NCBI GenBank assembly: GCA_964551375.1
Contig: CAZKBG010000001.1
Coordinates: forward strand, 42,833-106,832
Origin: an uncultured archaeon
GTDB lineage: Archaea > Iainarchaeota > Iainarchaeia > Iainarchaeales > JAAZKV01
Direction of reading: 5' to 3'
Length of the DNA: 64,000 nt
The notes below the pieces were generated by a model that made no database searches, had not been told where the DNA came from, and was given only the letters and a program-made list of their open reading frames with translations. Below, piece by piece: positions 23,579-55,811 of this stretch; positions within the stretch are counted from its first letter, which is position 1; every line of letters begins with the position of its first letter. A program made the translations under genes and the position numbers.

Positions 23579-23675
23579 AATTACTCTTCTTCTTTGATAT
23601 ATTTAACATATGAGGTTATGCCCAAGATTATAGCATATGTTAATTTTATATTTAGGAAAGTTCTATTTTCTGTGT

Positions 23676-32390: not shown

Positions 32391-33158
32391 ATGCCAAACA
32401 CAATAAGCGGTTTTGAGTTTATGTCTAATCCCATAGGCATTACAAAAAAAGCTCTTTTAAATTTGCCAAACGACGCTTCAGCATTGATAATATTAATTTC
32501 AAATCTTCTTTTCATAATAGTTGCCGTGCTTCAAAACGTTTCCCTTCAGGAAGTATGGCTGGTATATTGGTGCCAGAGCATCATAATAGGATTTTTTGCG
32601 CTTCTTAGGATGCTTACTTACAAACTGAAATCAGATTCTTCAAAAGTTAGTGGAATGAAGGAAGTATCAAGGATTTTTATTGCAGGATTCTTTGTTTTCC
32701 ACTACGGTTTCTTTCATTTTGTGTATTTAATGTTCATAGGATTCTCATTTATTTCCTCTGCATTTATGGATGTCTTCACGTCACCCGGCACTATTGTTGA
32801 TGCCGCGAGCACTGCCCAGTTTGCAGGGCCAAACATGATGCTTGTATTTTTAGGAGCAGTAATTTTCTTTTTTGCGCACTTGATTTCATTTATTCTAAAT
32901 TTTGCAAAAGACAACCAGAAAGAATGGGACTTAGGCGAACTGATGTTTGCGCCTTATTCAAGAATAATCCCAATGCATATTTCAATAATTGCCGCAGGAT
33001 TTATCGCAATGTTCCTTGGGATACCTCTGTCTTTAATGTTTGGAGCATCAGGGGCAAGAGCAGTTGAAGTTGTAATAATAGTATTTTTCCTTGGATTAAA
33101 GGTAGTTCTTGATTTGACTTCGCATGACTCTGCTCACCGCTTGGAGCATAATATTTAA
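32391..33158 (+). CDS. multi-pass membrane protein (255 aa)
   Basis: Six or more hydrophobic helices. Confidence 0.5.
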   Translation: MPNTISGFEFMSNPIGITKKALLNLPNDASALIILISNLLFIIVAVLQNVSLQEVWLVYWCQSIIIGFFALLRMLTYKLKSDSSKVSGMKEVSRIFIAGFFVFHYGFFHFVYLMFIGFSFISSAFMDVFTSPGTIVDAASTAQFAGPNMMLVFLGAVIFFFAHLISFILNFAKDNQKEWDLGELMFAPYSRIIPMHISIIAAGFIAMFLGIPLSLMFGASGARAVEVVIIVFFLGLKVVLDLTSHDSAHRLEHNI

Positions 33159-35660: not shown

Positions 35661-36140
35661 TTGGCAGAAATAATCCCTGAAGCAGAATTAATTAGGCGAG
35701 AATTTATAGTGAGGCAGATTGACCTCCCAGCTTCAGTAACTTTAACAAAAAAATCGCTTCTAAGATGGTGCTGTCTCTCGCTTGGCTTAATTTCCCCAAA
35801 AGAAACCCGCGACAAGGGATTTTTAGTATTTGACGCGCTCTTTACATTTATCTTTACAAAAAAACAATCTCCCACCACAATTGAAATAATGGATTTTATT
35901 AAAGAAAAAAACTCCGTTGAAATGAGCGAAAAATTAATCCGCTACCACTTAAACCGCTTAATTGAACTTGGGGTGATTAAAAGAGACGGACTTACATATT
36001 TAATAAATCCTTCTCCTACTTCAGAATCCCGAACTTCAATAAAAGAATCCTACAAATCTTGGGCGAAAAAACAGCTTGAGGAAGAAATGGACAAAATCAG
36101 CGAAGCGCTTGACAAACTACAAAAAAGCTATGAAAAATAG
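35661..36140 (+). CDS. putative winged-helix DNA-binding protein
   Basis: MDFIKEKNSVEMSEKLIRYHLNRLIELGVIKRDG looks wHTH-like; TTG start; sits immediately upstream of the platform/pilin locus. Confidence 0.4.
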   Translation: MAEIIPEAELIRREFIVRQIDLPASVTLTKKSLLRWCCLSLGLISPKETRDKGFLVFDALFTFIFTKKQSPTTIEIMDFIKEKNSVEMSEKLIRYHLNRLIELGVIKRDGLTYLINPSPTSESRTSIKESYKSWAKKQLEEEMDKISEALDKLQKSYEK

Positions 36141-36264: not shown

Positions 36265-38703
36265 TTGCCTCCTCTAAAAAAAATGAGTTATGAAGCCAGC
36301 CCCGGCGAACTCTATAAAGGAATAACCTCAACAGGCGAAGTTTTTGAAGGCGAAACAAAGCTTGTGATGGAAAAAGACCCTGAATTTGTTATTCTTTGCA
36401 AAAAAATGTATAAAACTTTTCCCGGATTTGGAGCGGGAGCAAAATTTCCTGAAGAACATTTAGAAGCAGTGCGATTTCTTGGGTGGCGCTTATCTCCTCA
36501 AGAATTTATGGCGGCAGTAAAAGGAACCGCAGTAATAGGAGGAGTGGGCGGATTTATTGCACTCATTGTTTTAGCATTTGTAGGACTAAGCATTGATTTA
36601 GGAATTGGCTCCCCAATAGGACTTGGATTGTTCAGTGAAATGCTCGGCGATTTTGCAATGGTAATAATTCTCGCAGGAGGAGTAGTCCTTTTTGGAATTG
36701 TGGGCGCAATTGCATACACAATTTATGTAACTCCAATAAACATGGCTGAGGATGAAAGAACAAGAGCGCTTACGTATGTTCCCGAAATGATTGGATATTT
36801 AATAATGTCAATGAAACTTGTTCCAAATTTAGAAAAAGCAATTGAATTCTCCGCAAAGCACGGAAAAGGAAAAGTTGCGGACGATTTTAACAAAGTTATT
36901 TGGGATTTTCAGAACGGATTTTACTCCTCAATCAGCGAAGGGCTTGACGCAATGGCTTTTAGATGGGCAAAGTACTCCGTTGAACTAAAAGAAGCTTTAA
37001 TGAAAATAAGGGCAAGTGTAATGGAGCCAAGCGAATCAAAAAGATATTCTCTTTTAGACAAAACAATGCTTGATGTTCTTGACAGTGTTAAGGATAAAAT
37101 GGGGGATTATGCAAGAAGCTTAAACCAGCCATCAGTAATGCTGTTCTATATTGGAGTCTTGCTCCCTTTATTACTTGTAATAATTCTTCCAGTGGGCTCA
37201 GCATTTTCAAACATGCCATTTGCAACAACCCCAATTCTTGTTGGAATTTACTGTTTCATGATTCCTTTCATGGCATTTAGCTTTGCAAAAGGAGTGATTA
37301 AGAAAAGGCCTCCTACTTACGAGCCTCCAGTTATTACCGATAATTTTGCAGGACTTCCGCCAAAATGGTCAATGAAACTTGGCGGGGGAATGATTGACGC
37401 GCGTCTTGCAGTAATAGGAATATTAATTTTAGGAATAGCAGGCTCTTTTATTATTTCATTTGAAGGAATTCCTCCAAAGCATTTATTTCCAATAGAAGAT
37501 GGAATATTCCAAGTTCCAATCCAAATAATTCCAGCAGATCCACAGCCAGATGAACTTTACAAAGATTTTTTAGGCGGAAAGAATTATTTTGAAAAAGTTG
37601 TGCTTGATTTGTACGCATTTCAAATAGGCGAAGGATTTGGCGGAGGATTAAAAGAAGGGGAAAGATACAAACAGTTGATTAAAGAACAAGTATCTCCAGT
37701 AGCAGCAGAAATTCAAGTAGTAAAAGAACGTCTTGATTTTACTTCAAAATCAGCAAGAAACGATCCAACAAAATATGTGTTCTGGGCAGGGCTTATTTTA
37801 ACAATCGCATGCGCTGGAAGCTTCCTTTTGTATCATAGAAATATTTACAAACTCAAAGCGCAGGAGCAAATTGTTCAAATGGAAGATGAATTCAAAGAAT
37901 CAATGTACATGATTGCTTCAAGAATGGGGGAGAACAAGCCAGTTGAAAGCGCATTAAAGCAGGCAAAAGAATATTTGCCAAACCTCTTAGTCAGCAAAAG
38001 AATTTTTGGAAAAACCGTTGAAAATATTGAGCTTATGGGACTCCCTCTTGAGAACGCAGTGTTTGACCCGGTGTATGGAGCAATGCGCGGAATTCCCTCA
38101 AAAATTTTAACCACCGCAATGCGACTGCTTGTTGATTCAGTAACTCTTGGAGTGGAAGTTGCGTCAAGAACCCTAATGTCACTCTCGCTTCAAATGGAAA
38201 ACATGGACAAGGTAAACAAATCCCTAAAAGACATGGTTTCGGATGTAACAACCACTATGTCCACTATGGCGATTTTTATTGCGCCAATGGTTCTTGGGAT
38301 AACTACCGCGCTTCAAAAAGTTGTGCTAAATACACTTGGTAGTGTAGTATCCTCTCCGTCTCTTGAAGCAACAGGAAGCGTTGGAGACATTAGCGGGGGA
38401 GCAGGAAGCCAAATCCTTCAATCCACTGGCCTTGGCGGAGGAATGGGGGATATTAACAGTATTTTCAGCGTGAGTATAGATGCTTTCCGCTCATTTGCAA
38501 CTCCTCTTGAATACATGCTGATAATTGGAACATACGTTGCAATGATAGTAATAATTCTAACTTATTTCACTGTGAAAATAAAAGAAGACAATGACTTGAT
38601 ATTTAGAGTAACTCTTGCAAAACAACTTCCAATCGCAATGGCGGTTTACTTATTCACAACCGTTGCTGCAAATTTAATGGTTGGAGGATTGATGTCAAGG
38701 TAA
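36265..38703 (+). CDS. FlaJ/PilC/TadC-like polytopic platform protein (812 aa) with two T2SSF-like cytoplasmic domains
   Basis: Two helical cytoplasmic domains (…KAIEFSAKHGKGKVADDFNKVIWDFQNGFYSSISEGLDAMAFRW… and …SALKQAKEYLPNLLVSKRIFGKTVENIELMGLPLENAVFDPV…), each flanked by TM helices, as in T2SSF platform proteins; TTG start. Confidence 0.5.
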   Translation: MPPLKKMSYEASPGELYKGITSTGEVFEGETKLVMEKDPEFVILCKKMYKTFPGFGAGAKFPEEHLEAVRFLGWRLSPQEFMAAVKGTAVIGGVGGFIALIVLAFVGLSIDLGIGSPIGLGLFSEMLGDFAMVIILAGGVVLFGIVGAIAYTIYVTPINMAEDERTRALTYVPEMIGYLIMSMKLVPNLEKAIEFSAKHGKGKVADDFNKVIWDFQNGFYSSISEGLDAMAFRWAKYSVELKEALMKIRASVMEPSESKRYSLLDKTMLDVLDSVKDKMGDYARSLNQPSVMLFYIGVLLPLLLVIILPVGSAFSNMPFATTPILVGIYCFMIPFMAFSFAKGVIKKRPPTYEPPVITDNFAGLPPKWSMKLGGGMIDARLAVIGILILGIAGSFIISFEGIPPKHLFPIEDGIFQVPIQIIPADPQPDELYKDFLGGKNYFEKVVLDLYAFQIGEGFGGGLKEGERYKQLIKEQVSPVAAEIQVVKERLDFTSKSARNDPTKYVFWAGLILTIACAGSFLLYHRNIYKLKAQEQIVQMEDEFKESMYMIASRMGENKPVESALKQAKEYLPNLLVSKRIFGKTVENIELMGLPLENAVFDPVYGAMRGIPSKILTTAMRLLVDSVTLGVEVASRTLMSLSLQMENMDKVNKSLKDMVSDVTTTMSTMAIFIAPMVLGITTALQKVVLNTLGSVVSSPSLEATGSVGDISGGAGSQILQSTGLGGGMGDINSIFSVSIDAFRSFATPLEYMLIIGTYVAMIVIILTYFTVKIKEDNDLIFRVTLAKQLPIAMAVYLFTTVAANLMVGGLMSR

Positions 38704-38777
38704 AGCAGATTACTGCTTGAATGCCTTGGCACTTAACTAATTAAAATTAAATGAAGTTTTGATTTTGAGGGGATGAA

Positions 38778-39260
38778 TTGGATAACAAAGGACAGGCAGA
38801 AGCAGTATTCCGCCTTATGATTGACTCAATAATTGGGCTTGCAATTTTAATGATAATAATAGCATCAATAGGCTACTTTGATGAACTAAGATTTATCCAG
38901 TCAACTTCTGATTTTAAACAGCTTGTAAAAGATGCAGTAAATTCTCCTGATGGGACTCTTCTCTCCGCAAAAGAATTAACATTTAAAGACGGCGCAGGAT
39001 TTGCAGCGGATGACTTTGAAGGATACACAGTAGTAAACAGAAAATGCTTCTCCTTTTTCTCTTCCTTTGCTTCAGTTGAAGTATCAGATGATGCCCAAGC
39101 AGTGCTCTTCAAACAAAGGCTCATTGCTTCGGTAAGCGCAAGGTGCATTCCAAATGCAGCAGCATCTTCATGCATATCAAGCGTTGATGCTGAAATAACT
39201 TCAGACAGCGACTGCTGCTTTAAGTGCGAAATATACTTTGGCAGAGTTCCTCAAAATTAA
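38778..39260 (+). CDS. pilin-like protein with class III signal peptide
   Basis: MDNKGQ|AEAVFRLMIDSIIGLAILMIIIA. Confidence 0.5.
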   Translation: MDNKGQAEAVFRLMIDSIIGLAILMIIIASIGYFDELRFIQSTSDFKQLVKDAVNSPDGTLLSAKELTFKDGAGFAADDFEGYTVVNRKCFSFFSSFASVEVSDDAQAVLFKQRLIASVSARCIPNAAASSCISSVDAEITSDSDCCFKCEIYFGRVPQN

Positions 39261-39358
39261 TCTTAATTGGATTAAAACCCTTAATTGCCCGCCAAAAAAG
39301 GCAAGTTTAAATACTTCAAAGTTCTTTTTCCTAAAGTGAATTCCTAAGGGGGATTATA

Positions 39359-39895
39359 ATGTTTAAGTTGAACCAGAAAGGACAGCAGTTCAGTGTTTTT
39401 GAGCTGATGATTGCGGGTATTGTAGCTTTTGCAATCTTGATGCTTTTACTCACAATAATAATGAAAGTTGATATCGGTGGACAGGGCGGAAATCCAAAAT
39501 CAGTAATTGAAAACGGAATTTCAAGCGCATTGCCATCATCAACAATAACAACAAATAATTTTACAATGAAAGCCGGAGATGAAGTGACTTCGGAGGATTT
39601 GATAAACAAAACAGGGCTTGATGCTTCAAGAATATACTTTGTCGCAGGTCAAATGAAGCTTGATACAGATGTAACAATAGTAGAACTCGACGACGGCGGA
39701 GCATCTTTAACAAACAAACGCTCAGGCGATTTAAGAGTTAGAGCAAAAGTAATTTGCAAAGCAAATGGACTTTCAGTTGCAGGCGCTCTTGAGAGACTAG
39801 GAGACAAATATGATGTTTCTTCATTTTCTGATAGCATGTGCGAAGAAGACAATCAGTCATGCTGTGTAGTAGTGCTTGAAAAACCAGGCAACTAA
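39359..39895 (+). CDS. pilin-like protein with class III signal peptide
   Basis: MFKLNQKGQ|QFSVFELMIAGIVAFAILMLLL. Confidence 0.5.
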   Translation: MFKLNQKGQQFSVFELMIAGIVAFAILMLLLTIIMKVDIGGQGGNPKSVIENGISSALPSSTITTNNFTMKAGDEVTSEDLINKTGLDASRIYFVAGQMKLDTDVTIVELDDGGASLTNKRSGDLRVRAKVICKANGLSVAGALERLGDKYDVSSFSDSMCEEDNQSCCVVVLEKPGN

Positions 39896-39962
39896 AGAGT
39901 TTTTTTGAATAGAAAAGAAGTATTATATACTTCTTTTCACTATTTCTTTTTGAGAGATTAAA

Positions 39963-40118
39963 ATGTCTAAGTCAAGCATACTTAAAGAAGAAGCTGCAGC
40001 AGGGGATTTTGGCGCGGTTTATATGATATTAGTTTTCGCAATAGTAGCGCTGTTATTGGTTCTAATAGTAAAGCCGATGTTTCAAAGCGCGCAAAAATCA
40101 ATCCCAAAAGCGCAATAA
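39963..40118 (+). CDS. unannotated sORF: 51-aa single-pass membrane protein inside the pilin array
   Basis: MSKSSILKEEAAAGDFGAVYMILVFAIVALLLVLIVKPMFQSAQKSIPKAQ; ATG 39963, TAA 40116-40118; below the 60-aa ORF-track cutoff. Confidence 0.3.
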   Translation: MSKSSILKEEAAAGDFGAVYMILVFAIVALLLVLIVKPMFQSAQKSIPKAQ

Positions 40119-40188
40119 TTTTTAATTTTCTAAATTAGTTTTTGTATTTTAGTGGTTTGTTTTAGTAGTTTAGAGTTTTGGTGTTGTA

Positions 40189-40773
40189 ATGAAGTTTATC
40201 CGCAAAAATAAAGGGCAGGTTTCTGCTCCGTTTGAGCTTTTAGTTGCGGTAGTAATAATGGCTTTTGTAGTAATTGTAGGCTGGAAAGTATTAACCGACG
40301 CAAAACTCCAATCCTGCCTTAACACAGTGGATAAATCAATGACTGATTTTAAAATAAATCTTGAAGACACTGCGAATAGAAGAAGCGAGAATTTTTTTAA
40401 TTTCAGCCCTGACAGGACCTGTTTTTATTCAAAAGATTCCGCAATGAAGATTTATCTTGAAAAGAGTTCAAGCGTCTGTGCGGCGATATGCAAGCGCCCC
40501 GTGCAGGAGTGCTATGTGCTAAAATTTGCAAACCAATCAATTCCAAACGCAGCTAAAAATAAATGCCTTGAGCTTCCGACTTATACAAGCTTCACCGCGT
40601 CAGGCGATTTGTGTACTAATATTGACCAAACTCTTTATCGTGGTTATGAGCCTGTGAATCCGCTTGGGGATGACGGGGATAATTTAGGAATCGGACAGTA
40701 TGTTTTCAAGTATGTTGCGCTTCAGGGACAGGCATTCCCGCAGATTTGCATTTGGTTTAGGCCAAGCGGCTGA
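40189..40773 (+). CDS. pilin-like protein with class III signal peptide
   Basis: MKFIRKNKGQ|VSAPFELLVAVVIMAFVVIVGW; Cys-containing body paralogous to ORF 40788. Confidence 0.5.
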   Translation: MKFIRKNKGQVSAPFELLVAVVIMAFVVIVGWKVLTDAKLQSCLNTVDKSMTDFKINLEDTANRRSENFFNFSPDRTCFYSKDSAMKIYLEKSSSVCAAICKRPVQECYVLKFANQSIPNAAKNKCLELPTYTSFTASGDLCTNIDQTLYRGYEPVNPLGDDGDNLGIGQYVFKYVALQGQAFPQICIWFRPSG

Positions 40774-40787
40774 TGAAGTGATAAAAT

Positions 40788-41330
40788 ATGCTTGAAAAAA
40801 TAATCCTTGCAGTGATTCTAATTGTTGCCGTGATTGGAGTAGTATACTACGGTCAGGACATTACCCCCGCTCTTGGGGCAGGGTGCAGCAATAATTCAAA
40901 GTTAAGCATTGAATCCTCAATTAAGGAATTTCGAATGGGGATCGAAACGGCAATGAAAGGCTCTGATTATGAATTTACATTTGCTCCTGATAGGGACTGC
41001 TTTGAATCAAAAGACTCTTCATTTAAGATTGAGTACATTACAAACATGTCGCTTTGCGGAGCGCTGTGCGATAATCCAGAAGATGAATGCAGAATGCTTG
41101 TTTACACAAACCCCACAGGATTTCCTTACAATAAAGTATCAACTTTTTGCATAAATAATTCAAAGTACATGGGGTTTGCTTTTGACAATGCTTCATGCGG
41201 AAATATTCCCCAAGGATACGTTCCAATAAATCCAATTAAGGAGGATTTAAATTCAGGGAAATACTTGATTAGGAATATGTCGCTTCCGCAGAACTCTCCT
41301 CGGATTTGCATATTGTATAAAGCAAGCTAA
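40788..41330 (+). CDS. pilin-like/secreted protein, paralog of ORF 40189
   Basis: N-terminal signal anchor; shares F(S/A)PDR(T/D)CF(Y/E)SKDS..(K/F)KI and C(A/G)A(I/L)C..P..EC..L with ORF 40189. Confidence 0.45.
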   Translation: MLEKIILAVILIVAVIGVVYYGQDITPALGAGCSNNSKLSIESSIKEFRMGIETAMKGSDYEFTFAPDRDCFESKDSSFKIEYITNMSLCGALCDNPEDECRMLVYTNPTGFPYNKVSTFCINNSKYMGFAFDNASCGNIPQGYVPINPIKEDLNSGKYLIRNMSLPQNSPRICILYKAS

Positions 41331-41431
41331 CTTAGCAAGTTGAAGTTTGGCGGGTTAAGTTAAGTAAGTGGGTTTAAGTTAAGAAAGTTAAACAGGATGA
41401 AGTTAAAGGTTATTTTCAAAAAGGTGTTAAG

Positions 41432-42253
41432 TTGTTAGGATTTGTTTTAGGAAAAATGCAGATGCTGTTTTTTGCAGTAGGGGTTGCAGTTGTCGCGCTT
41501 TTATTTTACAACTTTATAGTAACTCTTGGGCTTCATCAAGATGCAAATAATATGCTTCTTACTAATGCCAGAATTGTTTCAGACCAATTGAACAGCGATT
41601 TAACCTGCTCGTTCAAAACAACTTCCATTCAGGACAGATTTTACTATGGGATTGGCGGAATTCCGCTTTATTATGATTTAGAAATGACAAAGCAGAGCTT
41701 TGGGGATGCGTCGCTAGGAAACCAGCAAAACCAGCTGATTATGAGAATTGTTGAGCATAAATCCTCCACCCGCCAGAATCAGACAAAAAATGTTCTTGCC
41801 ACAAAAGCAATTCTAACAGATGCGCAAATAGTTCTAATCGACCCGGGATTTTTGAAAGAATTAGCGGGAATCAGCGATGTCCACTATAATAAAGATATTA
41901 TTGCGCTTTATCCAAGAGCCGGCTCTTCAAGCGAACTTCAAGCATCTTCTCCTGATTCTTTTGTTGCGCTAAAAGAAATTGAGAACGGAAAAACAACCAT
42001 TTACATAATCCCTTGCGCGACAGCAAAAGAAAGCCAGTCAAATAACTGTCTGAATAACATTCTAAGACTTGGGTGCTATAAACTTTCAAAAGAATACACA
42101 GGAAATCTTAATGCAGATAACCCTCTTCTTCCATCCTGCTTTAATGTAACAACACAACTGGGTCCTGAAATTGAGCGCTCAAAGAACTTCCGCTGGGCTG
42201 ACTGCTCTAATGTCGGATTTGTTAACGCAAACATTGGAATGTACACTCCCTAA
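41432..42253 (+). CDS. pilin-like/N-terminally anchored secreted protein
   Basis: MLGFVLGKMQMLFFAVGVAVVALLFYNFIV. Confidence 0.45.
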   Translation: MLGFVLGKMQMLFFAVGVAVVALLFYNFIVTLGLHQDANNMLLTNARIVSDQLNSDLTCSFKTTSIQDRFYYGIGGIPLYYDLEMTKQSFGDASLGNQQNQLIMRIVEHKSSTRQNQTKNVLATKAILTDAQIVLIDPGFLKELAGISDVHYNKDIIALYPRAGSSSELQASSPDSFVALKEIENGKTTIYIIPCATAKESQSNNCLNNILRLGCYKLSKEYTGNLNADNPLLPSCFNVTTQLGPEIERSKNFRWADCSNVGFVNANIGMYTP

Positions 42254-42305
42254 AGCAAATCAAAACTATTATTAATAAAGAAGAGTTACTTGTGGTAGTG
42301 GGTTT

Positions 42306-42881
42306 ATGTTTAAATCAAAAAAAGGTTTTATTGGCCCGATTGGGGACGACTTGCCTTCACTTGTTCCAATAGTTGTATCTCTGCTTTTGTTTTTCACAAC
42401 TTTCACCCTTGCGCTTAATACTTATAATACAAAAAATGCTTTCATAAACCAGCAGACTGAAATGACTTCGGTTGCGAGAGAATTAAAGGGAGATTCTCTG
42501 ATTTTGGGAGTGGATTGGTTTGAAAATAAATGCAAACAGCTCAAAATGAAAAGATATCCAAATAATTTCATTGCGGCGATTTATGATTCAGATGTTGAAA
42601 TGAATTTAATAATGGCGGATTTTTTAGGGCTCTCAGCAACAAATCCCACGCTTGACCCTACTGCCGCGACTTTATTAAAATCCGTATCCCAGTCAGACGG
42701 CTCCCAAAAACCATTTTACTGCGAGTACAAAAAGATTGGCGCGCAGCCATTTTCAGCGAGCTCAAAGAAGCGCTATCAGGTGAGATTTTATCCGGTTGCA
42801 GTTCAATATGGATTTACTGCGGCAGGAACAACTAATCACTTAATTATCCCTGGATTAATGGCGATGGTGGTTTGGGAATGA
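42306..42881 (+). CDS. pilin-like/N-terminally anchored secreted protein
   Basis: MFKSKKGFIGPIGDDLPSLVPIVVSLLLFFTTFTLAL. Confidence 0.45.
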   Translation: MFKSKKGFIGPIGDDLPSLVPIVVSLLLFFTTFTLALNTYNTKNAFINQQTEMTSVARELKGDSLILGVDWFENKCKQLKMKRYPNNFIAAIYDSDVEMNLIMADFLGLSATNPTLDPTAATLLKSVSQSDGSQKPFYCEYKKIGAQPFSASSKKRYQVRFYPVAVQYGFTAAGTTNHLIIPGLMAMVVWE

Positions 42882-43693
42882 ATAATTTCTCAATTTTAAA
42901 TAGAAGAGGGCAGGCGGCGCTTGTTGACTCGCTCTTTTTCATTGCAATTGTCTCAATAGTATGCACCGGGCTTTTTTACTTTACAATAAATTACGGCACT
43001 TCAACAGAGACTTTGTTAAATTCATTTTATGCCTCGGACTTTTCAATGGACTCTCTAAAAGTAATTTCTTATGTTAATGTAATGCGTGACGGAACAGGCG
43101 TTTCATCGCAATCAGTATCAGGCGCAGGAGCAAATCCTGCCCAGTTTGATTATATGCTTGCAATGATTAAGGAAGATTATGCAAGAAACAGGGAAGTAAG
43201 CTTTCAGACAAAAACCGCAATTGCAAACACAATCCACTCCGTCTTAAAACCGTTTGACGATTCCACTGATTATGTTTTTTACATTAAAAGAGAAGGAGGG
43301 GATGTTTCAGGAAAACAATTTTTGGCATTTATCATAGCTACAAGAAAATGCACTGGGGATTGCTGTGACGGAGAATGCACTCCGACTCCGGGGGATCCTC
43401 AATTAAGCGTTGAAAGAACTTATTATGCGTGCAATCCAGCGCAAGAGAATGTAATGCAGAAATTTGTCTATCCTTATGTCGGCAGGGTTGATTCAGCAGT
43501 GGGAAGAATTGCACTAAGCGACTTTGCAGGGAATTACACTTATTATTTGATGGGAATTGATTTGTGGGTTGCGAAGAAAACCAAAGCGACTGATGATATT
43601 GTCTCAAAATCAGAAGAAACAGATCCAGCATTAAGGGAATCGGATTTTGACTGCAACAGAATTCCAATTACTCCTGTTGCCGGGGCGCCTTAG
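42872..43693 (+). CDS. pilin-like protein with class III signal peptide
   Basis: MGMNNFSILNRRGQ|AALVDSLFFIAIVSIVCTGLFYF; 10-nt overlap with the preceding gene suggests an operon. Confidence 0.5.
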   Translation: MGMNNFSILNRRGQAALVDSLFFIAIVSIVCTGLFYFTINYGTSTETLLNSFYASDFSMDSLKVISYVNVMRDGTGVSSQSVSGAGANPAQFDYMLAMIKEDYARNREVSFQTKTAIANTIHSVLKPFDDSTDYVFYIKREGGDVSGKQFLAFIIATRKCTGDCCDGECTPTPGDPQLSVERTYYACNPAQENVMQKFVYPYVGRVDSAVGRIALSDFAGNYTYYLMGIDLWVAKKTKATDDIVSKSEETDPALRESDFDCNRIPITPVAGAP

Positions 43694-43748: not shown

Positions 43749-44633
43749 TTATCTGGAAGTCTTTGTCCCACATTTTGGGCATAAATAGGAATCGCCCTGT
43801 TTTTTTGAGCACTTATCACAAAATGCAGTTCCGCAGTTAGGACAGTATAAAATTTTATCAGTATCCTTTTTGCAATTAGGGCATTCTTCTTTATCATCAA
43901 GCTCAATTCCGCCTATGTCATCCTCTTTAATGTCTTCAATGCTTGAAATATCATTCATTCCAGAGCCAGAAGAATCATCGCCCAAATCAAGGCTGAAATC
44001 ATCATCAAAATTTTTCTTTTTCTGTTTGTCCTGCCTTTCATTATTTCCAAGAATATCCTTAATATCCCCAATCGGCGCCGTCTGTTCATCCGGGCCTATT
44101 GAATTTGTATTTTGTTTATCCTCTCCAGGCATTACTCTTCCAGAGTCAGCTCCTCTTCGCCCTCTCCTTTGACTTTGTCCGTGTGAAACTGGGGCGGCTG
44201 TTAATCCTTTTTCCGCAGCAAGCTCGTTAATATTGGAATTTTTTAATTGAGTAAAAAGATTCTCTGCAATAGTGTCAGATTCTTTTTGATTTGGAAGCCT
44301 CTTATTTTCTCTCTTAAATTTCTCAATTTCATTAAGCGCAAGTTTTTCTTCAAGATTCTTCTCTTGGATTTTTTTAAATTCTTCAGCATTCTTCTGGTCC
44401 ATTTCAAGATTTACATCCTCATAATCCATTGTCGGAATGTGGCTAAGTATGCTTCTTCCAGTAGGAGACTCATTATCTTCCTCATTTTTTTGCTGTCTAT
44501 TTTGCAAAAATCTCCCGCTATTCTGCTCCCTATAAGGCGCGTTGTATCCTTCATTGTACTGCTCTTTCTTCTGCTCTGCAGTGCGGTAAAAACGCATCAT
44601 CCTTCTTGGGACTTTTTCATCCATAAAAATCAT
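43749..44633 (-). CDS. disordered acidic protein with C-terminal double zinc-ribbon
   Basis: C-term CPNCKKDTDKILYCPNCGTAFCDKCSKKQGDSYLCPKCG (4 x CxxC). Confidence 0.5.
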   Translation of the reverse strand: MIFMDEKVPRRMMRFYRTAEQKKEQYNEGYNAPYREQNSGRFLQNRQQKNEEDNESPTGRSILSHIPTMDYEDVNLEMDQKNAEEFKKIQEKNLEEKLALNEIEKFKRENKRLPNQKESDTIAENLFTQLKNSNINELAAEKGLTAAPVSHGQSQRRGRRGADSGRVMPGEDKQNTNSIGPDEQTAPIGDIKDILGNNERQDKQKKKNFDDDFSLDLGDDSSGSGMNDISSIEDIKEDDIGGIELDDKEECPNCKKDTDKILYCPNCGTAFCDKCSKKQGDSYLCPKCGTKTSR

Positions 44634-44674: not shown

Positions 44675-45394
44675 TTATTCTTTTTCATCTCCAAGCTCGT
44701 TTAATAGTCCTTCTTCAATCTCTTCAATTTCTTCATCCTCTTCCTTATACGCTTCCTCTTTTTTCTTCTTGCCTGTGGATTTTTTCTTGTCGTTAATATC
44801 AAGCGCCATTTGTCTTAATTTTGCAAGCGCGGCATTCTTCTGCTCCTTATTTGATTTACTTTCAAGTTCTTTTGTGTTTTTATCAATAACCTTTAGCACA
44901 TTAGTGTTTTTGTCCTTAAAAACCTGATTTTTTATCATAGCAGGAGTAACTTTAGGAGTCGGACTGCTTCCTTTAGTCATCAACCCTTCTTCAAATCTAA
45001 TCCTATCCGCCACAGGCATTTTCTCTTCCTTTGTAAGCCCCATTTTTGGAATAGCAACTTTTCTCTTCTTTTCCTCAACAAAAATTTCAGGATCAGCCTC
45101 TTCATGATACATTCTTTTTGCAAATGCAATTCCCATCAAAATAACATACATAGTTATTCCAAGCAAAAAGAAGTAATCCGAATTCATTCCTCCAAGCACT
45201 ATTGCAGCAATTGGAATTCCAAAAATTAAAGCACCCGCTCCGTATCCATAAGCGATTTTATTAGTCAAAGCCTCAAGCTGAACATTAGGCATAGCAGTTC
45301 TTACTACCGAGTACCCAACGGAGAAACTCCCAAGCAAGAAAAAAGCATAAATAAGTTCCTGCATCAAACCAAATCCTGTTCCTAATGCAATCAT
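44675..45394 (-). CDS. membrane protein with acidic low-complexity cytoplasmic tail
   Basis: Four N-terminal TM helices; C-terminal EEAYKEEDEEIEEIEEG. Confidence 0.5.
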   Translation of the reverse strand: MIALGTGFGLMQELIYAFFLLGSFSVGYSVVRTAMPNVQLEALTNKIAYGYGAGALIFGIPIAAIVLGGMNSDYFFLLGITMYVILMGIAFAKRMYHEEADPEIFVEEKKRKVAIPKMGLTKEEKMPVADRIRFEEGLMTKGSSPTPKVTPAMIKNQVFKDKNTNVLKVIDKNTKELESKSNKEQKNAALAKLRQMALDINDKKKSTGKKKKEEAYKEEDEEIEEIEEGLLNELGDEKE

Positions 45395-45507: not shown

Positions 45508-46116
45508 ATGCGTTATTTTTTCATGGAATTAGTAGAAGTAATATTTGCTATTTTTGATTTTCTAAAACTGGCGATTCCGCTCACAATCCTTGTTTTTGTG
45601 CTCTATAAGGCATTTTCCCCCGCAAAATTATGGCTTATTGAAAAGTATAATTTATCCTGGATGAAATCAGTAATCCTGCTAAATTTCATTATTGTTTTTG
45701 TATCTCTATTAGTATTTTATTTTTATTTTGTTCTCACAGGAACATTAGGCGCGGCTCCAATGGACCCTGATCTTCAATATACTTTAGGCGAGAATGCAAT
45801 AATGGTTCTAATAGGAGCAGTTAGAGTTCTTGTTGCTGCAGTAATTCTCACACTCATTGTTTTGTTCTTTGAATTTATAGCAAGCCTTGCAATGGATTCA
45901 AATATAATAAAATTTGGGGCAAATACTGTAAAATCAAAAAAACATTCTTCTGAAGGGGCATCAATGGTGATGCAGATATTTGGCGTATTTGTTTCAGTAG
46001 TGATATTTTTGATTCTATTTTTGTTCATATTCGCATGGGTTCCACTTGGGCTTGTTGTATTCATTTTTTACGGCGGAGTAAAGGAAATTCCTCTGCTATT
46101 GATAGGGTTGATATGA
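45508..46116 (+). CDS. multi-pass membrane protein (202 aa)
   Basis: Hydrophobic throughout. Confidence 0.45.
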   Translation: MRYFFMELVEVIFAIFDFLKLAIPLTILVFVLYKAFSPAKLWLIEKYNLSWMKSVILLNFIIVFVSLLVFYFYFVLTGTLGAAPMDPDLQYTLGENAIMVLIGAVRVLVAAVILTLIVLFFEFIASLAMDSNIIKFGANTVKSKKHSSEGASMVMQIFGVFVSVVIFLILFLFIFAWVPLGLVVFIFYGGVKEIPLLLIGLI

Positions 46117-46249: not shown

Positions 46250-49200
46250 ATGAGTCAGGCAAGACAGATTTTTTTGCATTCCTTAATAACAGGAATAATG
46301 CTTCTGTCGCTAATTTTAGCAAACCCCGGCTTTGCATATGCTGTTGAGTCAAGCGCAGGCGTTTTTAGTTTTGCTGCCCCTGCAGTAACTCCAAATACAA
46401 CAGGGGGAATAGTTCTTCCAGCCTCAACAAGCGCAGGCACTGGCAGTACAAGCACTGGCGGCAGTACAAGCGGAATAGTCCTTCCAGGCGGAAGCGGCAG
46501 CGGTTCCACAGTAATTCCAAATTCTGTTCCTGCAGGAACATGCTCTGTTTCTCAATTAAAACCCTCCGAAGTGAAAGGAATACTTGACTTAACTCACGAA
46601 GGATTCAACGGAAAAACAATATCCGATAAAAAAATAGGGGATTCAAATGATTCAAACAAAAACGGAGTAAAAGACTTAGGAGATATGAGCGCAATTGGAA
46701 AAGATATTTCAGGAAAACAAGCTGTAAAAGTTGATTTGCCAACAATAGCCGCTCCCGCAAACAGATTTGCTTTCTTTGACGGCTCAAGAATTACAGGCCC
46801 ATTTGGAATAGGATTAATTTTAGATGATACTTTAAGAGTGGGAAGATGCGATTATCCTGCTCAGGAACAGGCGCTTTGCAAAATAAACGGCTCCGGGCTT
46901 CAAGTGCGAACAAGCGGAGTAGGATTCACTTCAGATATTACAAACGCGTTTAATTCGCTGAAAAACACCGGGAAAAATCTTGCTGAAAACGCTCTTTCCC
47001 CAGATGATTACAACAAGATGCGCGGAAATTACCTTGACATTAACAGCAATGATTTCACAACAGGCTCGTTTGGAACAGGCGCTCAATTAAAAAATTCCAT
47101 TCTTACCCAGCAGTATAATGCAAGAAACGCAACAACCTGCAATAACAGCTCATGCGTAATAAGCACTTACTCTGCATTTGACAAATACTTTAATTCATGG
47201 CTAACAACTGACATGGTTGTTTCAAACATTGGTCCAACTTTGCTTCACAAAGGGTACAAATTATTTACAAAAGGAGCAAAGTCATTTGGTGACGGATCGC
47301 TTGCAGGTCCATGGAACCAAGTAATGAAAGCAAAAAGAATGGTTTCTCCAAGCGAGATATTCGGGAAACAAAGATACGCAAAGTATAATGCCTTGATTAA
47401 GGAAGAAGGATTTGGAAAAATATTTGAACCTCTAACTATACAAGGAAAGTTATTTAGCTCAGGCGCGGCCGGAGAAATAGATAAATTAGTTGCAAAAGAC
47501 TCTCCAATTTGGAAACTTGACTCTGAGCAAAGAAAAAAATTCTTTGAGGCAGTGGAGCATTTGAGAGCTTATTCAATAGCAAATTCCGAGGCAATGTCTG
47601 CTGCAGAAGCGGCATTTAAGGCACAATCAGACGCAGCAAGCTTAATTGCAAATCCAGCAGCAAGAGCGCTTGCTGAAAAAAATGCGAAAATATCTTGGGG
47701 GCAAGATGTTTCAAGAGTATTCAACGATTGGGATGACACAGTATTTTTGGATTCGCCAGCATGGCTTGCAAAGAATGAAGATTTGCTTTCTCTTGGCGGA
47801 TACGCGATGAAAAGAAACGGGCCTCCAGGGGCATGGCCTGATGGGCAGGGATATATTGATGTTTCAACAAGCGGTTCATTTAATTTCAAAGAAGCATTGA
47901 AAAAATTCAGAGATGAAGGCGGTTGGTCAGGCTGGGCGAACAGCACCGACGCAAAGTCATTTGCAGCAAATGCTGACGGGAGCTTAAAACTTTATAAAAT
48001 AAGCGAAGAAGGAACTGCGATTGCACAAAACGTTGGACTGCAGGACTTGAAATTTCATTTATCTAAATCAGGCTCAGGAACTTACAGCGTAAAACTTCCT
48101 GACGGAAGACTAATTCCTTTGAATGATGCTTCAATTGACATGATTGCGGGAAACCCTGCACTCCCAGGGCATGTAACGATATTCAAATCAACTTATGTTG
48201 AAGCAACTCCTCTTACTCCAGAAGACTTTGCAAACAGAGTAACACACTCAAGAATAACAGGAAGGCCAAACACAGCAGTAAGAAATATGGATGACTTGCA
48301 CAATGCTCTCCTTCAGAATGATTTTGCCCCAAGAAGATTCACAAGCGCACTTGATGAACAGTTTGCAAAAGAAGGGGATATGATAAAAAAATATTACAAA
48401 GACCCAACAGTTGGGATTTACAAAGGGACAATTCTTCCTGTATTTTACTGGAATGCAAAAAGAGGATTTGGGCAGGAACAATTCTCCGCATTTATGCTTC
48501 CTGATACATGGACAACTCTTACCGTATCTCAGGGAACAGACAAGATATACAAAGATTCCTATATTGACTTTTACGCAAATGAAGGCTCGGATCAGGGAGA
48601 CATGTTCAAAAGAGCATTCAACAGCTTAGCATTTGTTTGGACAAAAGCGTTGGATCTTGCTGCAGAAACTAACACTTTCCTAAAAGATGGGATTTCAAAA
48701 GTGAGCGGCGGATTCTTTGAAGGAAGCGCGACAAGAGACATAGTTGGGGATTTGGCATTCTACTCTCATAACGAATCATGCGCAGGATGCACAGGAAATA
48801 TTAATTTCAAAAACAATTATTTCACACTTAATGGATTTAATTCAGGAATAGCAATGCAGGCATTTTTGCTTGAAGCAAAAACTCCTGAAGAAAAAGCAAA
48901 AGAAGGAAGCTTGATTGTTTCATATACACACCACTCAAACTTGAACGGAAAAAGCACTCAAATTGAGGGCGGCTCAATTGATATTGCAAAAGCAAGAATC
49001 AGCGGAGAAACATGCGACCAGAAACTAAGAAAAATGGGCTTAGGATGGGCAGGTTCAGGAGCAGGCGGAGTACTGGCACTTGCAGAAAATTTAGGATATG
49101 TAGTTGGATTTGGGCCAGGGCTTGTTGCAAGCTTAGTTCAGCAGATGTACTTTGGAAGAGAATTACAAGATTGTGTTGATGATGTTGAAGGGTATTACAC

Positions 49201-50911
49201 TCACTTCTACGCTCCTCCTGCAAAAGACGCAAGCAAGAATAAGACAAAAGAAATGCTTTCAAATGAAAATGTTACAGGCGCACTATCTGACATGAGCACA
49301 AAGCTTGACGAGTTTGTAAAAGAAACACAAGCAAATCAAAAAACAACAACCGCAAAAACTCCGACAAACCCAGTTGAAAAATCAATGGACAGCTTGAGCA
49401 CTCAATTCAAAGACTTCGCAGAAAAAGCAAAGCAGACAAACATACTTCAGGCAACAGTAGAACTTCTTCCTCCATCAAGCGGAACATTATCAGGAAAAGA
49501 TGTATTTTACATTTGGTTTAAAGAAACACTAATGCCTTCAGGGTACCGCTCAACAGGAAAAATGATTATTTCAGACGGCAATAACTCAGTTGAAGCAAAC
49601 TTTGCAGAAGGCACTTTGAAAGTGAATGGAAAAGAAGTGATTGGAAAAGACAGTGCAGATCACACAAGACTGCTAACTCAAGACAACAGAATCCCTGCAG
49701 AAGTAGTTCCAATGACACTAAATAGAATCGCGGCTCCAATGAACGAAGGAACTGTATTTGAAATGAATTCATACGGCGAAGTAAAAATTCTTAACTCTGA
49801 TGTATTAAACTGCTTCCAAAAAGCAGTAAGAGACCAGACAGGAATAACTTACAGCGGAAGCGAAGTAACACAAGTAATGGGAAATCTCCAGGCAATAAGC
49901 ACAGACATGTACGGCTCTGTTTTCGCAAGAGATACTAAGATTTTCCTTGAGGGAACTGCAGCAAGAATGCAGGGAAGCTCATACTCTAAGTTTATAATAA
50001 ACGGATTTTGGAATACAAAATTAGTTGACGGCAACGGCTCGCTTGATTCAGGAAAATTCGTTGGAATGAACTTTGCAAACGGAACAATAGTTCTAAAGCC
50101 AGAAACAAATGAACTTGTTATTTGGATAAGACAGCACAAAGACGCAATATTAACAAGCAAGGACGTAAAAGATTTGAAAGCTACTCCCACAACAGTAAAA
50201 GATCCTGCGACAGATTGTGACACTCCCGCAATTGACCTTGAAGCAGTGCCATTTGCTAATGATGAACTTGGAGCTCAAAAAGTAGGCAACTTCAACACTT
50301 CAATGAATCACCTTGGTCCATTCACTCAATTCACAACCGACAAAAGAATTTATGAATTTTATTCAAAAAGAGACGGAAATAACGGAGACTGCAAGAATTA
50401 CTTTAGAGTAAGAGACAAAGACACTGGAAAAATATTGACAGACCAGGAAATAGTCGGACCAATAACTCAAGATGCTGACGGCACAATAAAATTCAGGACA
50501 GCAGACGGCAAACAGCAGTCCTTAAAGTTTGACGCAGAAAACGGGGTTCCAAAAGTTTCATACAATGGAGGAGCTCCAGAAACACTACTTTCAGCGCAGG
50601 GACCAAAAGGCTCATTCTGGTACGATCCAAATACAGGGCAGTGGTACCCAGAGAACGGACTGCAGATTCCTCTAAATCAAGCTTTCAAAGATAACGGTGC
50701 TTGGTTTGAGCCTGACAAAAATGGAAATGTTGTTGGTACACCTGAAAATAAAATGACATTTAACATCGGACAGGGAAAGGACTCAAGCTTTAACTTGCCA
50801 TCAATGCCAGAAACAGCGGCAGGAATAGCAGTATTCATGATGTTATTCTTATTAGTAGCATTCATGACAACACAGGGTAGATACAAAAGAAAAAGAAAAG
50901 ATTTACTTTAA
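46250..50911 (+). CDS. giant cell-surface protein (1553 aa) with signal peptide and C-terminal TM anchor
   Basis: Signal LITGIMLLSLILANPGFAYA; G/S/T-rich stalk; C-term AAGIAVFMMLFLLVAFMTTQGRYKRKRKDLL. Confidence 0.65.
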   Translation: MSQARQIFLHSLITGIMLLSLILANPGFAYAVESSAGVFSFAAPAVTPNTTGGIVLPASTSAGTGSTSTGGSTSGIVLPGGSGSGSTVIPNSVPAGTCSVSQLKPSEVKGILDLTHEGFNGKTISDKKIGDSNDSNKNGVKDLGDMSAIGKDISGKQAVKVDLPTIAAPANRFAFFDGSRITGPFGIGLILDDTLRVGRCDYPAQEQALCKINGSGLQVRTSGVGFTSDITNAFNSLKNTGKNLAENALSPDDYNKMRGNYLDINSNDFTTGSFGTGAQLKNSILTQQYNARNATTCNNSSCVISTYSAFDKYFNSWLTTDMVVSNIGPTLLHKGYKLFTKGAKSFGDGSLAGPWNQVMKAKRMVSPSEIFGKQRYAKYNALIKEEGFGKIFEPLTIQGKLFSSGAAGEIDKLVAKDSPIWKLDSEQRKKFFEAVEHLRAYSIANSEAMSAAEAAFKAQSDAASLIANPAARALAEKNAKISWGQDVSRVFNDWDDTVFLDSPAWLAKNEDLLSLGGYAMKRNGPPGAWPDGQGYIDVSTSGSFNFKEALKKFRDEGGWSGWANSTDAKSFAANADGSLKLYKISEEGTAIAQNVGLQDLKFHLSKSGSGTYSVKLPDGRLIPLNDASIDMIAGNPALPGHVTIFKSTYVEATPLTPEDFANRVTHSRITGRPNTAVRNMDDLHNALLQNDFAPRRFTSALDEQFAKEGDMIKKYYKDPTVGIYKGTILPVFYWNAKRGFGQEQFSAFMLPDTWTTLTVSQGTDKIYKDSYIDFYANEGSDQGDMFKRAFNSLAFVWTKALDLAAETNTFLKDGISKVSGGFFEGSATRDIVGDLAFYSHNESCAGCTGNINFKNNYFTLNGFNSGIAMQAFLLEAKTPEEKAKEGSLIVSYTHHSNLNGKSTQIEGGSIDIAKARISGETCDQKLRKMGLGWAGSGAGGVLALAENLGYVVGFGPGLVASLVQQMYFGRELQDCVDDVEGYYTHFYAPPAKDASKNKTKEMLSNENVTGALSDMSTKLDEFVKETQANQKTTTAKTPTNPVEKSMDSLSTQFKDFAEKAKQTNILQATVELLPPSSGTLSGKDVFYIWFKETLMPSGYRSTGKMIISDGNNSVEANFAEGTLKVNGKEVIGKDSADHTRLLTQDNRIPAEVVPMTLNRIAAPMNEGTVFEMNSYGEVKILNSDVLNCFQKAVRDQTGITYSGSEVTQVMGNLQAISTDMYGSVFARDTKIFLEGTAARMQGSSYSKFIINGFWNTKLVDGNGSLDSGKFVGMNFANGTIVLKPETNELVIWIRQHKDAILTSKDVKDLKATPTTVKDPATDCDTPAIDLEAVPFANDELGAQKVGNFNTSMNHLGPFTQFTTDKRIYEFYSKRDGNNGDCKNYFRVRDKDTGKILTDQEIVGPITQDADGTIKFRTADGKQQSLKFDAENGVPKVSYNGGAPETLLSAQGPKGSFWYDPNTGQWYPENGLQIPLNQAFKDNGAWFEPDKNGNVVGTPENKMTFNIGQGKDSSFNLPSMPETAAGIAVFMMLFLLVAFMTTQGRYKRKRKDLL

Positions 50912-50999: not shown

Positions 51000-51743
51000 T
51001 TAAGTGTACATTGGAGTTGAATCCGGCTTCACTTCTTTTGTTTCCTCAATAGTCTTTAAGTGCTTAATTATGGACTCTTCAAGCGTCTTTGCCTCTTCAA
51101 GAAGCGGCTTAACATCAATGCTGATCTTAGTCAATGCGCAGATTATTTTCACCACTTCAGCAGCGGCATTATAATCAGCATTATTTTTTGCGTTTCCAAG
51201 CACGCAGAACGCTTCAATATTATTATCCTTAAGCCCAAGCATTAAAAGAGCAGTAACTCCTGAAGTAATTCCATTGTCAATCATTGGGATATTATTTTTA
51301 TGGATAATTTTCTTTGAAGCCTCATTGCTTGCAAAAGCATAAACAGGCTTTCCGTCAGGAATTCTTACCCCTGAAGTGGAAATAACCCTTGTAATTCCTT
51401 TCTTTTTAATCCAAGCAACCAGCTCATCCGAAGTAGGGGCTGCTATGATGTTATCAATAATCTGTTCAGCAAGTCCAATAACAACTTTGTACTTTTTATT
51501 GGCATAAATCCTCACAGGGTGCACAGGAAGCCCGTTTTGAATTCTAATCATGGGCATAAAATGCCTTGAGTCAATATACCCTATCTGCTCAAATTTTAAT
51601 TTATCAACAAGGTACCTTGAGCCGATAGTCCCTGCAAGTCCAAGATCCGGAAATCCTTCAATAAAAGTAAAGCCTTTAAGAGGCATATTTTTAGTTTCAA
51701 CAATTTTGATTAATTTATTTGTCTGCATTTCTTTCTCCGCCAT
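51000..51743 (-). CDS. PAC2-family proteasome assembly chaperone (COG1938, PbaA/PbaB-like)
   Basis: N-term ...LKGFTFIEGFPDLGLAGTIGSRYLV matches the PAC2 signature (IEGFPG.G.VG); start set at ATG 51743 (MAEKE) to abut the upstream gene rather than 51863. Confidence 0.55.
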   Translation of the reverse strand: MAEKEMQTNKLIKIVETKNMPLKGFTFIEGFPDLGLAGTIGSRYLVDKLKFEQIGYIDSRHFMPMIRIQNGLPVHPVRIYANKKYKVVIGLAEQIIDNIIAAPTSDELVAWIKKKGITRVISTSGVRIPDGKPVYAFASNEASKKIIHKNNIPMIDNGITSGVTALLMLGLKDNNIEAFCVLGNAKNNADYNAAAEVVKIICALTKISIDVKPLLEEAKTLEESIIKHLKTIEETKEVKPDSTPMYT

Positions 51744-51790
51744 TAACACACCTTGACAAAGAATTACTTTTATTGTTAATAAACCTTTCT

Positions 51791-52738: not shown

Positions 52739-52789
52739 AACCAGTTCACATCCTGCTAATTTTGCTTTTAGAGTTTTTCTTCGTTAATT

Positions 52790-55436: not shown

Positions 55437-55811
55437 TCATTTTTTGGGCTTGTCCCATTCAACTTTCTGCCCTATTCTAAGTTGGAAAATTTTGTTTTCA
55501 GGCATTTCAATAACATACTTAGCAGCTTTTTTTGGAGTGTAATTAGGCGTGAATGGAGTTAATGTAACCTTATCCACAATAATTTTATTTTTATCCAAAA
55601 ACAGGACATCAATTGGAAAGAAAACAAAAAGCATGTGAAGAGAGGTCCCAATCTTGCTCTCAACAGGGAAATCAAAAATAAGCGCATAATTAAAGTTCTT
55701 TTTATCCTCAAACATTAATCCCTTTGTCCGTTCCCAGCTGTTATTTGCGAAACGAACATTCTTCATCAATACTTTATTTCCTACTTTTAGCACCATTATC
55801 CACTCAAGCAA
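55437..55811 (-). CDS. DUF192-like (COG1430) small protein
   Basis: MLFVFFPIDVLFLDKNKIIV and ~120 aa size resemble DUF192; weak. Confidence 0.4.
   Translation of the reverse strand: MLEWIMVLKVGNKVLMKNVRFANNSWERTKGLMFEDKKNFNYALIFDFPVESKIGTSLHMLFVFFPIDVLFLDKNKIIVDKVTLTPFTPNYTPKKAAKYVIEMPENKIFQLRIGQKVEWDKPKK

Follow-up and report, generated by a model that had tools for sequence, protein, structure and literature searches.

Archaeal type IV pili (for example, Methanococcus Epd, Sulfolobus Aap and Ups, and Haloferax PilA) combine a FlaI/GspE2-type ATPase and a FlaJ/TadC-type platform protein with several proteins in which a short charged leader, with [KR][GA] at its end, precedes a hydrophobic helix; their fast-evolving pilins escape standard models. 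Here we analysed a locus of this kind in a 64,000-nucleotide stretch of contig CAZKBG010000001.1 (hereafter the window) from a Diapherotrites/Iainarchaeota (DPANN) archaeon, in which the gene for an 812-amino-acid (aa) membrane protein is followed on the same strand by eight small genes (36265..43693, +). We put at roughly 0.75 the probability that this region holds the platform and pilin genes of a lineage-specific type IV pilus-like system, shared throughout Iainarchaeota/Diapherotrites, and that a rearrangement has left the dedicated ATPase of this system encoded in trans.

DPANN archaea rely on contact through the cell surface, and their surface machines are mostly listed as 'hypothetical proteins'. 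The 2016 survey of archaeal type IV pili by Makarova, Koonin and Albers covered nanoarchaea as the only DPANN lineage (PMC4858521), a 2019 review reported that DPANN type IV pilus islands hold unrecognisable pilins (PMC6393860), and a 2021 study of metagenome-assembled genomes said of Diapherotrites reference genomes, in generic terms only, that they possess type-IV pili (PMC8561730). We found no description of such a locus architecture in the literature.

Comparison with described filament and sorting systems

The core logic of the locus is that of an archaeal type IV filament system, from which it differs in sizes and extensions, signal dialect, small components and linkage to a sortase-like gene and giant proteins. 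The ATPase of the system is ~765 aa long, with a unique ~300-aa N-terminal extension, and the platform is 770–810 aa long, with ~9 transmembrane (TM) segments and an extra ~100-aa loop between its halves. Signals at the locus have an acidic residue at +7 (QxFSVFEL) instead of +5 and do not match PF04021 (Class_IIIsignal). Further components begin with MLG↓FTLSK (↓, candidate cleavage site), with Lys at +5, or with KG↓FIGPIGDD, and one is the product of a 50–65-aa small open reading frame (sORF).

The archaellum has an ATPase and a platform homologous in type, and Joint Genome Institute annotations of relatives read 'FlaI'. Pfam and NCBIfam scans found no archaellin (FlaB), FlaF/FlaG or other archaellum-specific family among ten scanned locus proteins, and none of FlaB, FlaF, FlaG and FlaH is annotated in the related loci; judged by its genes, the locus is not an archaellum. 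Tad/Flp pili (CpaF–TadB–TadC–Flp) resemble it in that its ATPase is related to CpaF (E = 2.8e-26) and the single-helix 51-aa protein (p51) recalls Flp-size pilins. However, Tad systems have two separate single-domain platform proteins, as encoded at 51791..53692 in the window, whereas the two domains are fused at this locus, and its pilins are 160–273 aa with globular domains. By these features it is not a Tad system either. The archaeosortase D/PIP-CTERM system (TIGR04175, TIGR04205) likewise brings together an exosortase/archaeosortase enzyme, a C-terminal motif with a TM helix and basic signal, and class III proteins. In contrast, the sortase-like protein of the relatives registers on the generic model only (42 bits) and scores 21.6 on the ArtD model (cutoff 125), the C-terminal motif here is NLPSLPE rather than PIP, and a full ATPase and platform machine is attached.

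A conserved set of nine genes

The nine + strand open reading frames (ORFs) of 36265..43693 lie exactly where they had been predicted. The order of the eight small genes, including the 51-aa sORF, is kept, with orthologues in 13–26 related loci; with the platform gene included, order is kept in 13–30 related Diapherotrites/Iainarchaeota loci. A GGTG/GGGG Shine–Dalgarno (SD)-like motif precedes every start codon of the locus, TTG starts included. Given these motifs and the ordered orthologues, the small ORFs, among them the 51-aa sORF, are genuine genes rather than chance ORFs. Identity among orthologues is 35–53% for the pilins versus 72–81% for the winged helix-turn-helix (wHTH)-like gene upstream of the platform. 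None of the nine locus proteins had a significant match in Pfam or NCBIfam. Most members are annotated as hypothetical by NCBI; they emerge here as a conserved lineage-specific type IV filament set.

The platform protein

The 812-aa protein (36265..38703, +; SD-like GGTG and a TATA-like box upstream) has ~9 predicted TM segments. It is 100% identical to a database protein from a 946,135-bp contig, and its homologues are listed as Candidatus Diapherotrites or Iainarchaeum. The original prediction saw two T2SSF-like domains in it and named failure against T2SSF models, together with small proteins that lack predicted class III cleavage sites, as grounds for giving the idea up. The single sequence indeed gave no match to PF00482/T2SSF at E ≤ 1 in Pfam or NCBIfam, a negative that family-level evidence overturned. 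PF00482 was matched by 17 of 33 platform homologues at approximately residues 175–305, within the N-terminal half (best 27.4 bits, cutoff 25.2), and among distant family members P0281 matched it in the C-terminal half and P0367 twice. The second domain was too weak to see by hhalign with a 33-sequence alignment and became visible with 133 sequences: the N-terminal half aligned with the window's TadB-like protein (87%, E = 4e-6, 189 columns), as did the C-terminal half (76%, E = 2e-5), and N-terminal against C-terminal half gave 78% (E = 1.7e-5).

An AlphaFold2 (AF2) model of the platform was all-helical (predicted local distance difference test (pLDDT) 90.7, predicted template modelling score 0.89), with two parallel six-helix cytoplasmic bundles at approximately residues 160–285 and 524–660, TM helices beside each, a helix pattern that is thus duplicated, and ~100 additional residues separating the halves. 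Sequence profile searches of the PDB with the platform family gave marginal matches only, and an exhaustive profile search of the family gathered 918 cluster representatives, with 403 reaching E ≤ 1e-30. On the profile evidence, the 812-aa protein is a two-domain FlaJ/PilC/TadC-type platform; the predicted structure supports this but does not prove it. Support for the predicted two-domain architecture thus came from the family and not from the single sequence, a reminder that failure of one sequence against a hidden Markov model can be reversed by its relatives. A FlaJ/PilC-type platform followed by pilin-like genes, separate from the Tad-like operon at 51791..55091, also agrees with the earlier suggestion of a second, type IV filament-like gene set in the window.

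The dedicated ATPase parted from the platform in one clade

No ATPase is encoded in cis, as had been noted. The sole T2SSE (FlaI/TadA-like) ATPase of the window is a 474-aa protein (53667..55091, −) accompanied by two single-domain T2SSF genes of its own. In three relatives (L003, L004 and L005), the platform gene comes immediately after that of a 761–768-aa T2SSE ATPase. Species-representative genomes scanned for this long ATPase gave 51 loci, and counting these together with the three relatives, the platform directly follows it in 34. The long ATPase is ~25% identical to the window's Tad-like ATPase. Its nearest solved relatives are Archaeoglobus fulgidus GspE2, CpaF and FlaI, which match its C-terminal ~400 residues only. 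It often contains an intein: many orthologues (among them P0142, P0146, P0153, P0173 and P0202; L042, L044, L049, L050 and L052–L054) are ~1,270–1,290 aa long, with an intein/homing-endonuclease insertion (PF14528, PF14890) after approximately residue 495.

Where this adjacency is broken and the ATPase shares at least 83% identity with P0127, a long ATPase, it always lies at one junction, ATPase(+), aCPSF1(−), proteasome(−), which is common to L007/13, L008, L009, L010, L012, L040 and L060. The window, L001 and L006 show the complementary junction, with the wHTH gene directly upstream of the platform; no such gene was detected in loci with the ATPase still attached. The platforms of these three are 66–68% identical to one another versus 58% to the outgroup, and thus form a clade. 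In the genome of L006, the long ATPase is ~120 kb from the platform on the same 985,290-bp contig; in that of L001, the two share a 983,011-bp contig, ~113 kb apart, with the ATPase at the shared junction. Two further clade contigs, those of P0012 and P0014, carry both platform and long ATPase, so that all four traceable clade genomes keep the long ATPase on the platform's contig, 113–120 kb away in the two mapped. Because the complementary junctions are shared and the ATPase is kept in clade genomes, we conclude from gene order that the locus is ATPase-less only in cis, through a single ancestral rearrangement after which the dedicated ATPase, seen in sister genomes, was retained.

One result weighs against this reading and is its main residual uncertainty: no long ATPase from the window's own contig appeared in the homologue list, the species-representative scan or the 30 ATPase clusters, with the genome being absent from the position index. 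The aCPSF1/proteasome neighbourhood of the long ATPase is likewise not in the window. We nonetheless infer that the long ATPase is present in trans in the window's own genome.

The same gap would fit a genome that has no ATPase of its own for this system (lost or never present) and borrows the 474-aa Tad-like enzyme. No long ATPase lies in the 64-kb window, none was traced to its contig, and there is precedent in ATPase/TadC pairs that apparently serve pilins encoded elsewhere (PMC4858521). However, the Tad-like ATPase, only distantly similar to the cognate enzyme, has two platform genes of its own, and an intact long ATPase is found in every traceable clade genome (83–93% mutual identity); failed tracing is weak evidence for a genome absent from the gene-position index. 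Sharing of the Tad-like ATPase by a system with none of its own is quite unlikely. The suggestion that the system lacks its own ATPase and shares the Tad-like one thus finds no support, since a dedicated ~765-aa ATPase lies upstream of the platform in ~34 loci and is kept in clade genomes. Nor did the same adjacency support the alternative offered with it, a platform homologue recruited for another structure.

The split also raises the question of whether the block is decaying, as what is left of a pilus operon that became non-functional once parted from its ATPase. Operon linkage is lost and one duplicated pilin gene (40788) has no leader, but the nine ORFs are intact and preceded by SD-like motifs, the platform is 66–87% identical across the clade and the 51-aa sORF 65–81% identical to its closer orthologues, and the split arrangement persists in several divergent genomes. 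We find decay hardly credible. Under the reading of a rearranged system with its ATPase in trans, the apparent absence of an ATPase is an artefact of rearrangement, not new biology, and claims of operons lacking a component call for comparative synteny before interpretation.

The wHTH-like gene (35661..36140, +, 159 aa) does sit directly upstream of the platform as described; its fold assignment has weak support, with matches to HTH_5/HTH_24 at E of ~0.01–0.03, below cutoffs, and a further weak match to HTH_12. Its place at the junction suggests a candidate regulator taken up as the block was cut off from what originally lay upstream of it. Two other ATPase loci (L019 and L047; 77–79% identity to P0127) have neither a downstream platform nor the aCPSF1 junction and may be independent break-ups of the same operon.

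A divergent class III signal dialect

Four of the small proteins (38778, 39359, 40189 and 42872) have a short charged leader, [KR]GQ and a hydrophobic helix, kept among orthologues. The [KR][GA]Q plus helix signature was specific, occurring in 7 of 302 window ORFs and in none in wrong frames. These four had been described as textbook (K/R)GQ...FEL signals; all carry [KR]GQ and the helix, and the literal FEL is confined to 39359 and 40189. A glutamine at +1, as at this locus, was reportedly noted in EppA substrates by Szabo et al. in 2007. The other four proteins had been taken for signal anchors. Two of these, 41432 and 42306, carry invariant Gly-containing N-terminal motifs that resemble cleavage sites. 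With a relaxed +1 residue, 42306 also shows the charged leader and helix; 40788 does not, and 39963 is ambiguous.

None of the eight small proteins matched PF04021 (Q-x-S/T-x-E at +1 to +5) at E ≤ 1. As a positive control, the model did match three other window proteins (E = 3e-5 to 9e-4). Because the locus proteins miss PF04021 while these three match, the genome uses two class III 'dialects', that of the locus proteins being divergent, with its acidic residue at +7.

The three PF04021-positive proteins are large (1725..4439, −, 904 aa; 23637..25577, +, 646 aa; 27367..28626, +, 419 aa) and carry the canonical DUF361-type motif [KR][GA]Q↓G(T/A)IEYL; the 646-aa protein also has an SBBP beta-propeller repeat. 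They may be members of the Tad-like system or adhesins displayed on a pilus. We rejected them as substrates of the locus machine, as they occur in only 3 of ~60 related loci.

Among the window's polytopic ORFs, we found neither a Peptidase_A24 match nor a GxGD-type motif. Two candidates for a prepilin peptidase (12757..13389 and 45508..46116) were set aside for want of relevant matches or a GxGD motif, and a third (32391..33158) is DUF6498.

The small proteins

The first two pilin-like proteins are paralogues. Protein A (p160; 38778..39260, +; 160 aa, 6 Cys) begins MDNKGQ↓AEAVFRLMID, followed by the helix, and [KR][GA]Q is retained by its orthologues in 26 loci, with the consensus [KR][GA]Q-x4-F(R/N/E)L. 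Protein B (p178; 39359..39895, +; 178 aa) has the most conserved N-terminus of the set, NQKGQ(A/E)FSVF(E/K)L(L/M)IA, near-invariant in 23 loci, and occurs as tandem duplicates in relatives. A TTTAAATA box of its own lies upstream of the gene, and a T7 run follows the stop codon. The AF2 model of p178 (pLDDT 80.5; its depth limited by a homologue search that gave only 5 proteins) shows a helix at residues 7–35 and a compact alpha/beta domain, and this head has no significant match to solved pilins in the PDB. From its N-terminal conservation, tandem duplicates, promoter-like box and terminator, and helix-plus-head model, we infer that p178 is the best major-pilin candidate.

The product of the sORF, a conserved single-pass membrane protein (p51; 39963..40118, +; 51 aa), had been unannotated; it is a real gene, with orthologues in 17 loci at 41–81% identity. 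Members of the group are 50–65 aa long, with a charge distribution opposite to that of a pilin. Distant clades carry [KR]AQ(G/S)EW..Y(M/L)LIV...KPMFxxSQ, and the window's clade, which has no [KR]AQ, carries AAAGDFGAVYMILVF. p51 weakly matches the ComGC pilin (E = 0.065; NCBIfam/Pfam scans) and may be a mini-pilin or an assembly factor.

Protein C (p194; 40189..40773, +; 194 aa, 8 Cys) keeps [KR]GQxxAPFELLVAV in 18 loci and weakly matches TIGR04205 (class III signal, archaeosortase D-associated; E = 0.13) and DUF7289 (E = 0.08). The next gene encodes a 180-aa protein (p180; 40788..41330, +), also with 8 Cys, that is 33% identical to p194 (E = 1.6e-25), in agreement with the earlier description of the two as Cys-containing paralogues. 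It starts inside the helix (MLEKIILAV...), without a leader. All relatives examined have a single copy, and by this comparison p180 is a lineage-specific duplicate of p194.

Protein D (p273a; 41432..42253, +; 273 aa) begins with ML(G/S/A)F(T/I)LSK(I/M)N(L/M)L, a start that is invariant among the 15 orthologues aligned; blastp placed orthologues in 18 loci. Its leader would be 3 residues long and its G↓FTL site resembles those of bacteria, except that Lys takes the +5 place of the Glu5 of bacterial pilins. GGTG 6 nt upstream supports its TTG start. Membrane component E (p191; 42306..42881, +; 191 aa) opens with [KR]KG(F/Y)(I/L)GP(I/L)GDDLPSL(I/V)P and a TM helix, near-invariant in 16 loci (group motif [KR]KGFIGPIGDDLPSL, then the helix), and has the candidate cleavage site KG↓F. 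Its end overlaps by 10 nt the start of protein F (p273b; 42872..43693, +; 273 aa, 7 Cys), which keeps [KR]GQAA(L/V)(V/T)D(S/A)L(F/Y)F in 17 loci. T-rich terminator-like runs follow the p273b stop codon. The signatures of these unusual pilins are now usable.

Linkage to a sortase-like enzyme and giant surface proteins

In at least 30 loci, the long ATPase is divergently paired with a ~210–220-aa four-TM gene and a 2,700–3,040-aa surface protein that contains CarboxypepD_reg. The ~220-aa neighbour matches TIGR04178 above cutoff (L007, E = 8.1e-11, 42.1 bits, cutoff 23; L005, E = 4.5e-9, 36.5 bits), the signature of the exosortase/archaeosortase family; subfamily models (ArtD, XrtX and so on) stay below cutoff. 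Examples are L007 9199..9867(−), L005 5309..5968(−) and L060 5097..5723(−). The window has no such gene. A role of this neighbour as a peptidase was rejected on account of its exosortase/archaeosortase-family identity.

On the other side of the module, the last pilin gene is directly followed in 16 loci by a gene for a protein with a C-terminal Cys4 ribbon, the convergent Zn-ribbon gene 43749..44633(−) in the window (294 aa; a long acidic low-complexity N-terminal part and weak Zn-finger Pfam matches). Further downstream, 13 loci have a ~1,550–1,690-aa protein. The window's copy (46250..50911, +; 1553 aa) has a Sec-type signal peptide and ends in FNLPSMPET, a TM helix and an RYKRKRK tail, and orthologues in L022, L025 and L030 keep NLPSLPE or NLPSLPIQ with the TM helix and basic tail. 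No NCBIfam model matched the 1553-aa protein, existing CTERM-signal models included. By its layout, NLPS(L/M)PE with a TM helix and basic tail is a PEP-CTERM-like sorting signal. It is plausibly a substrate signal for the sortase-like enzyme, a coupling drawn from linkage only.

This linkage speaks for a different reading, in which the locus encodes not primarily an adhesive filament but a short pseudopilus or surface-display device resembling a type II secretion system (T2SS), acting with the archaeosortase-like enzyme to export, anchor or present the giant surface proteins beside the ancestral locus. Both ends of the ancestral locus would fit, with the long ATPase beside the TIGR04178-family gene and a giant protein with a sorting-type C-terminus adjoining the pilin block; so would the presence of 6–8 different pilin-like proteins, as in T2SS pseudopili, and the existence in NCBIfam of an archaeosortase D-associated class III signal family that p194 weakly matches. 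However, linkage alone does not prove functional coupling, giant proteins with Sec signals need no type IV pilus-like exporter, the pilin block is split from the sortase gene in the window's clade with no decay seen, and the separate promoter and terminator of p178 suit an abundant shaft subunit. We consider a pseudopilus unlikely.

A broader proposal, to which we give a low probability, is a phylum-wide Iainarchaeota composite surface apparatus: a filament machine with non-canonical signals, coupled to a minimal archaeosortase that processes giant NLPSLPE-CTERM proteins, and still working with its modules dispersed. If true, it could, for example, mount or present giant adhesins for attachment to hosts or particles. 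The linkage of pilus, sortase and giant proteins is the most interesting by-product of the analysis, and its weight rises if the coupling proves functional; it could serve as a guide for cryo-electron tomography, proteomics and gene annotation in Iainarchaeota.

A model of the pilus-like system

For the type IV pilus-like system itself, the ancestral layout is a giant surface protein and an archaeosortase-like gene, divergent from the ~765-aa FlaI/GspE2-type ATPase, the ~770–810-aa two-domain platform and 6–8 class III-like proteins. One rearrangement in the window's lineage cut between ATPase and platform. The ATPase stayed with the sortase-like gene, now abutting aCPSF1, and the platform–pilin block was relocated, with the conserved wHTH gene now upstream.

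In the assembled system, the trans-encoded long ATPase would dock on the platform at its two cytoplasmic helical bundles, and a prepilin peptidase encoded outside the window would trim the [KR][GA]↓Q-type leaders. The shaft would be a polymer of p178, perhaps together with its paralogue p160, formed through the N-terminal helix, and the Cys-rich p194/p180, p273a, p191 and p273b may be minor pilins or base or tip components. Attachment is the most likely role of such a filament.

Other genes near the locus

Between the pilin block and the giant protein lie genes for a 239-aa membrane protein with a Lys/Glu-rich tail (44675..45394, −) and a 202-aa membrane protein with ~5 TM segments (45508..46116, +). 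Both are of unknown family and are kept at this position in ~5 closer relatives. A DUF192 (COG1430) gene (55437..55811, −) adjoins the Tad-like ATPase operon, and another is found near the long-ATPase locus of L004 (4564..5214, −). After the Tad-like operon comes a gene for PAC2, a proteasome assembly chaperone (51000..51863, −). The longest ORF of this gene shares 73 nt with the end of the TadC-like gene (51791..52738, −), and the true start therefore probably lies further downstream.

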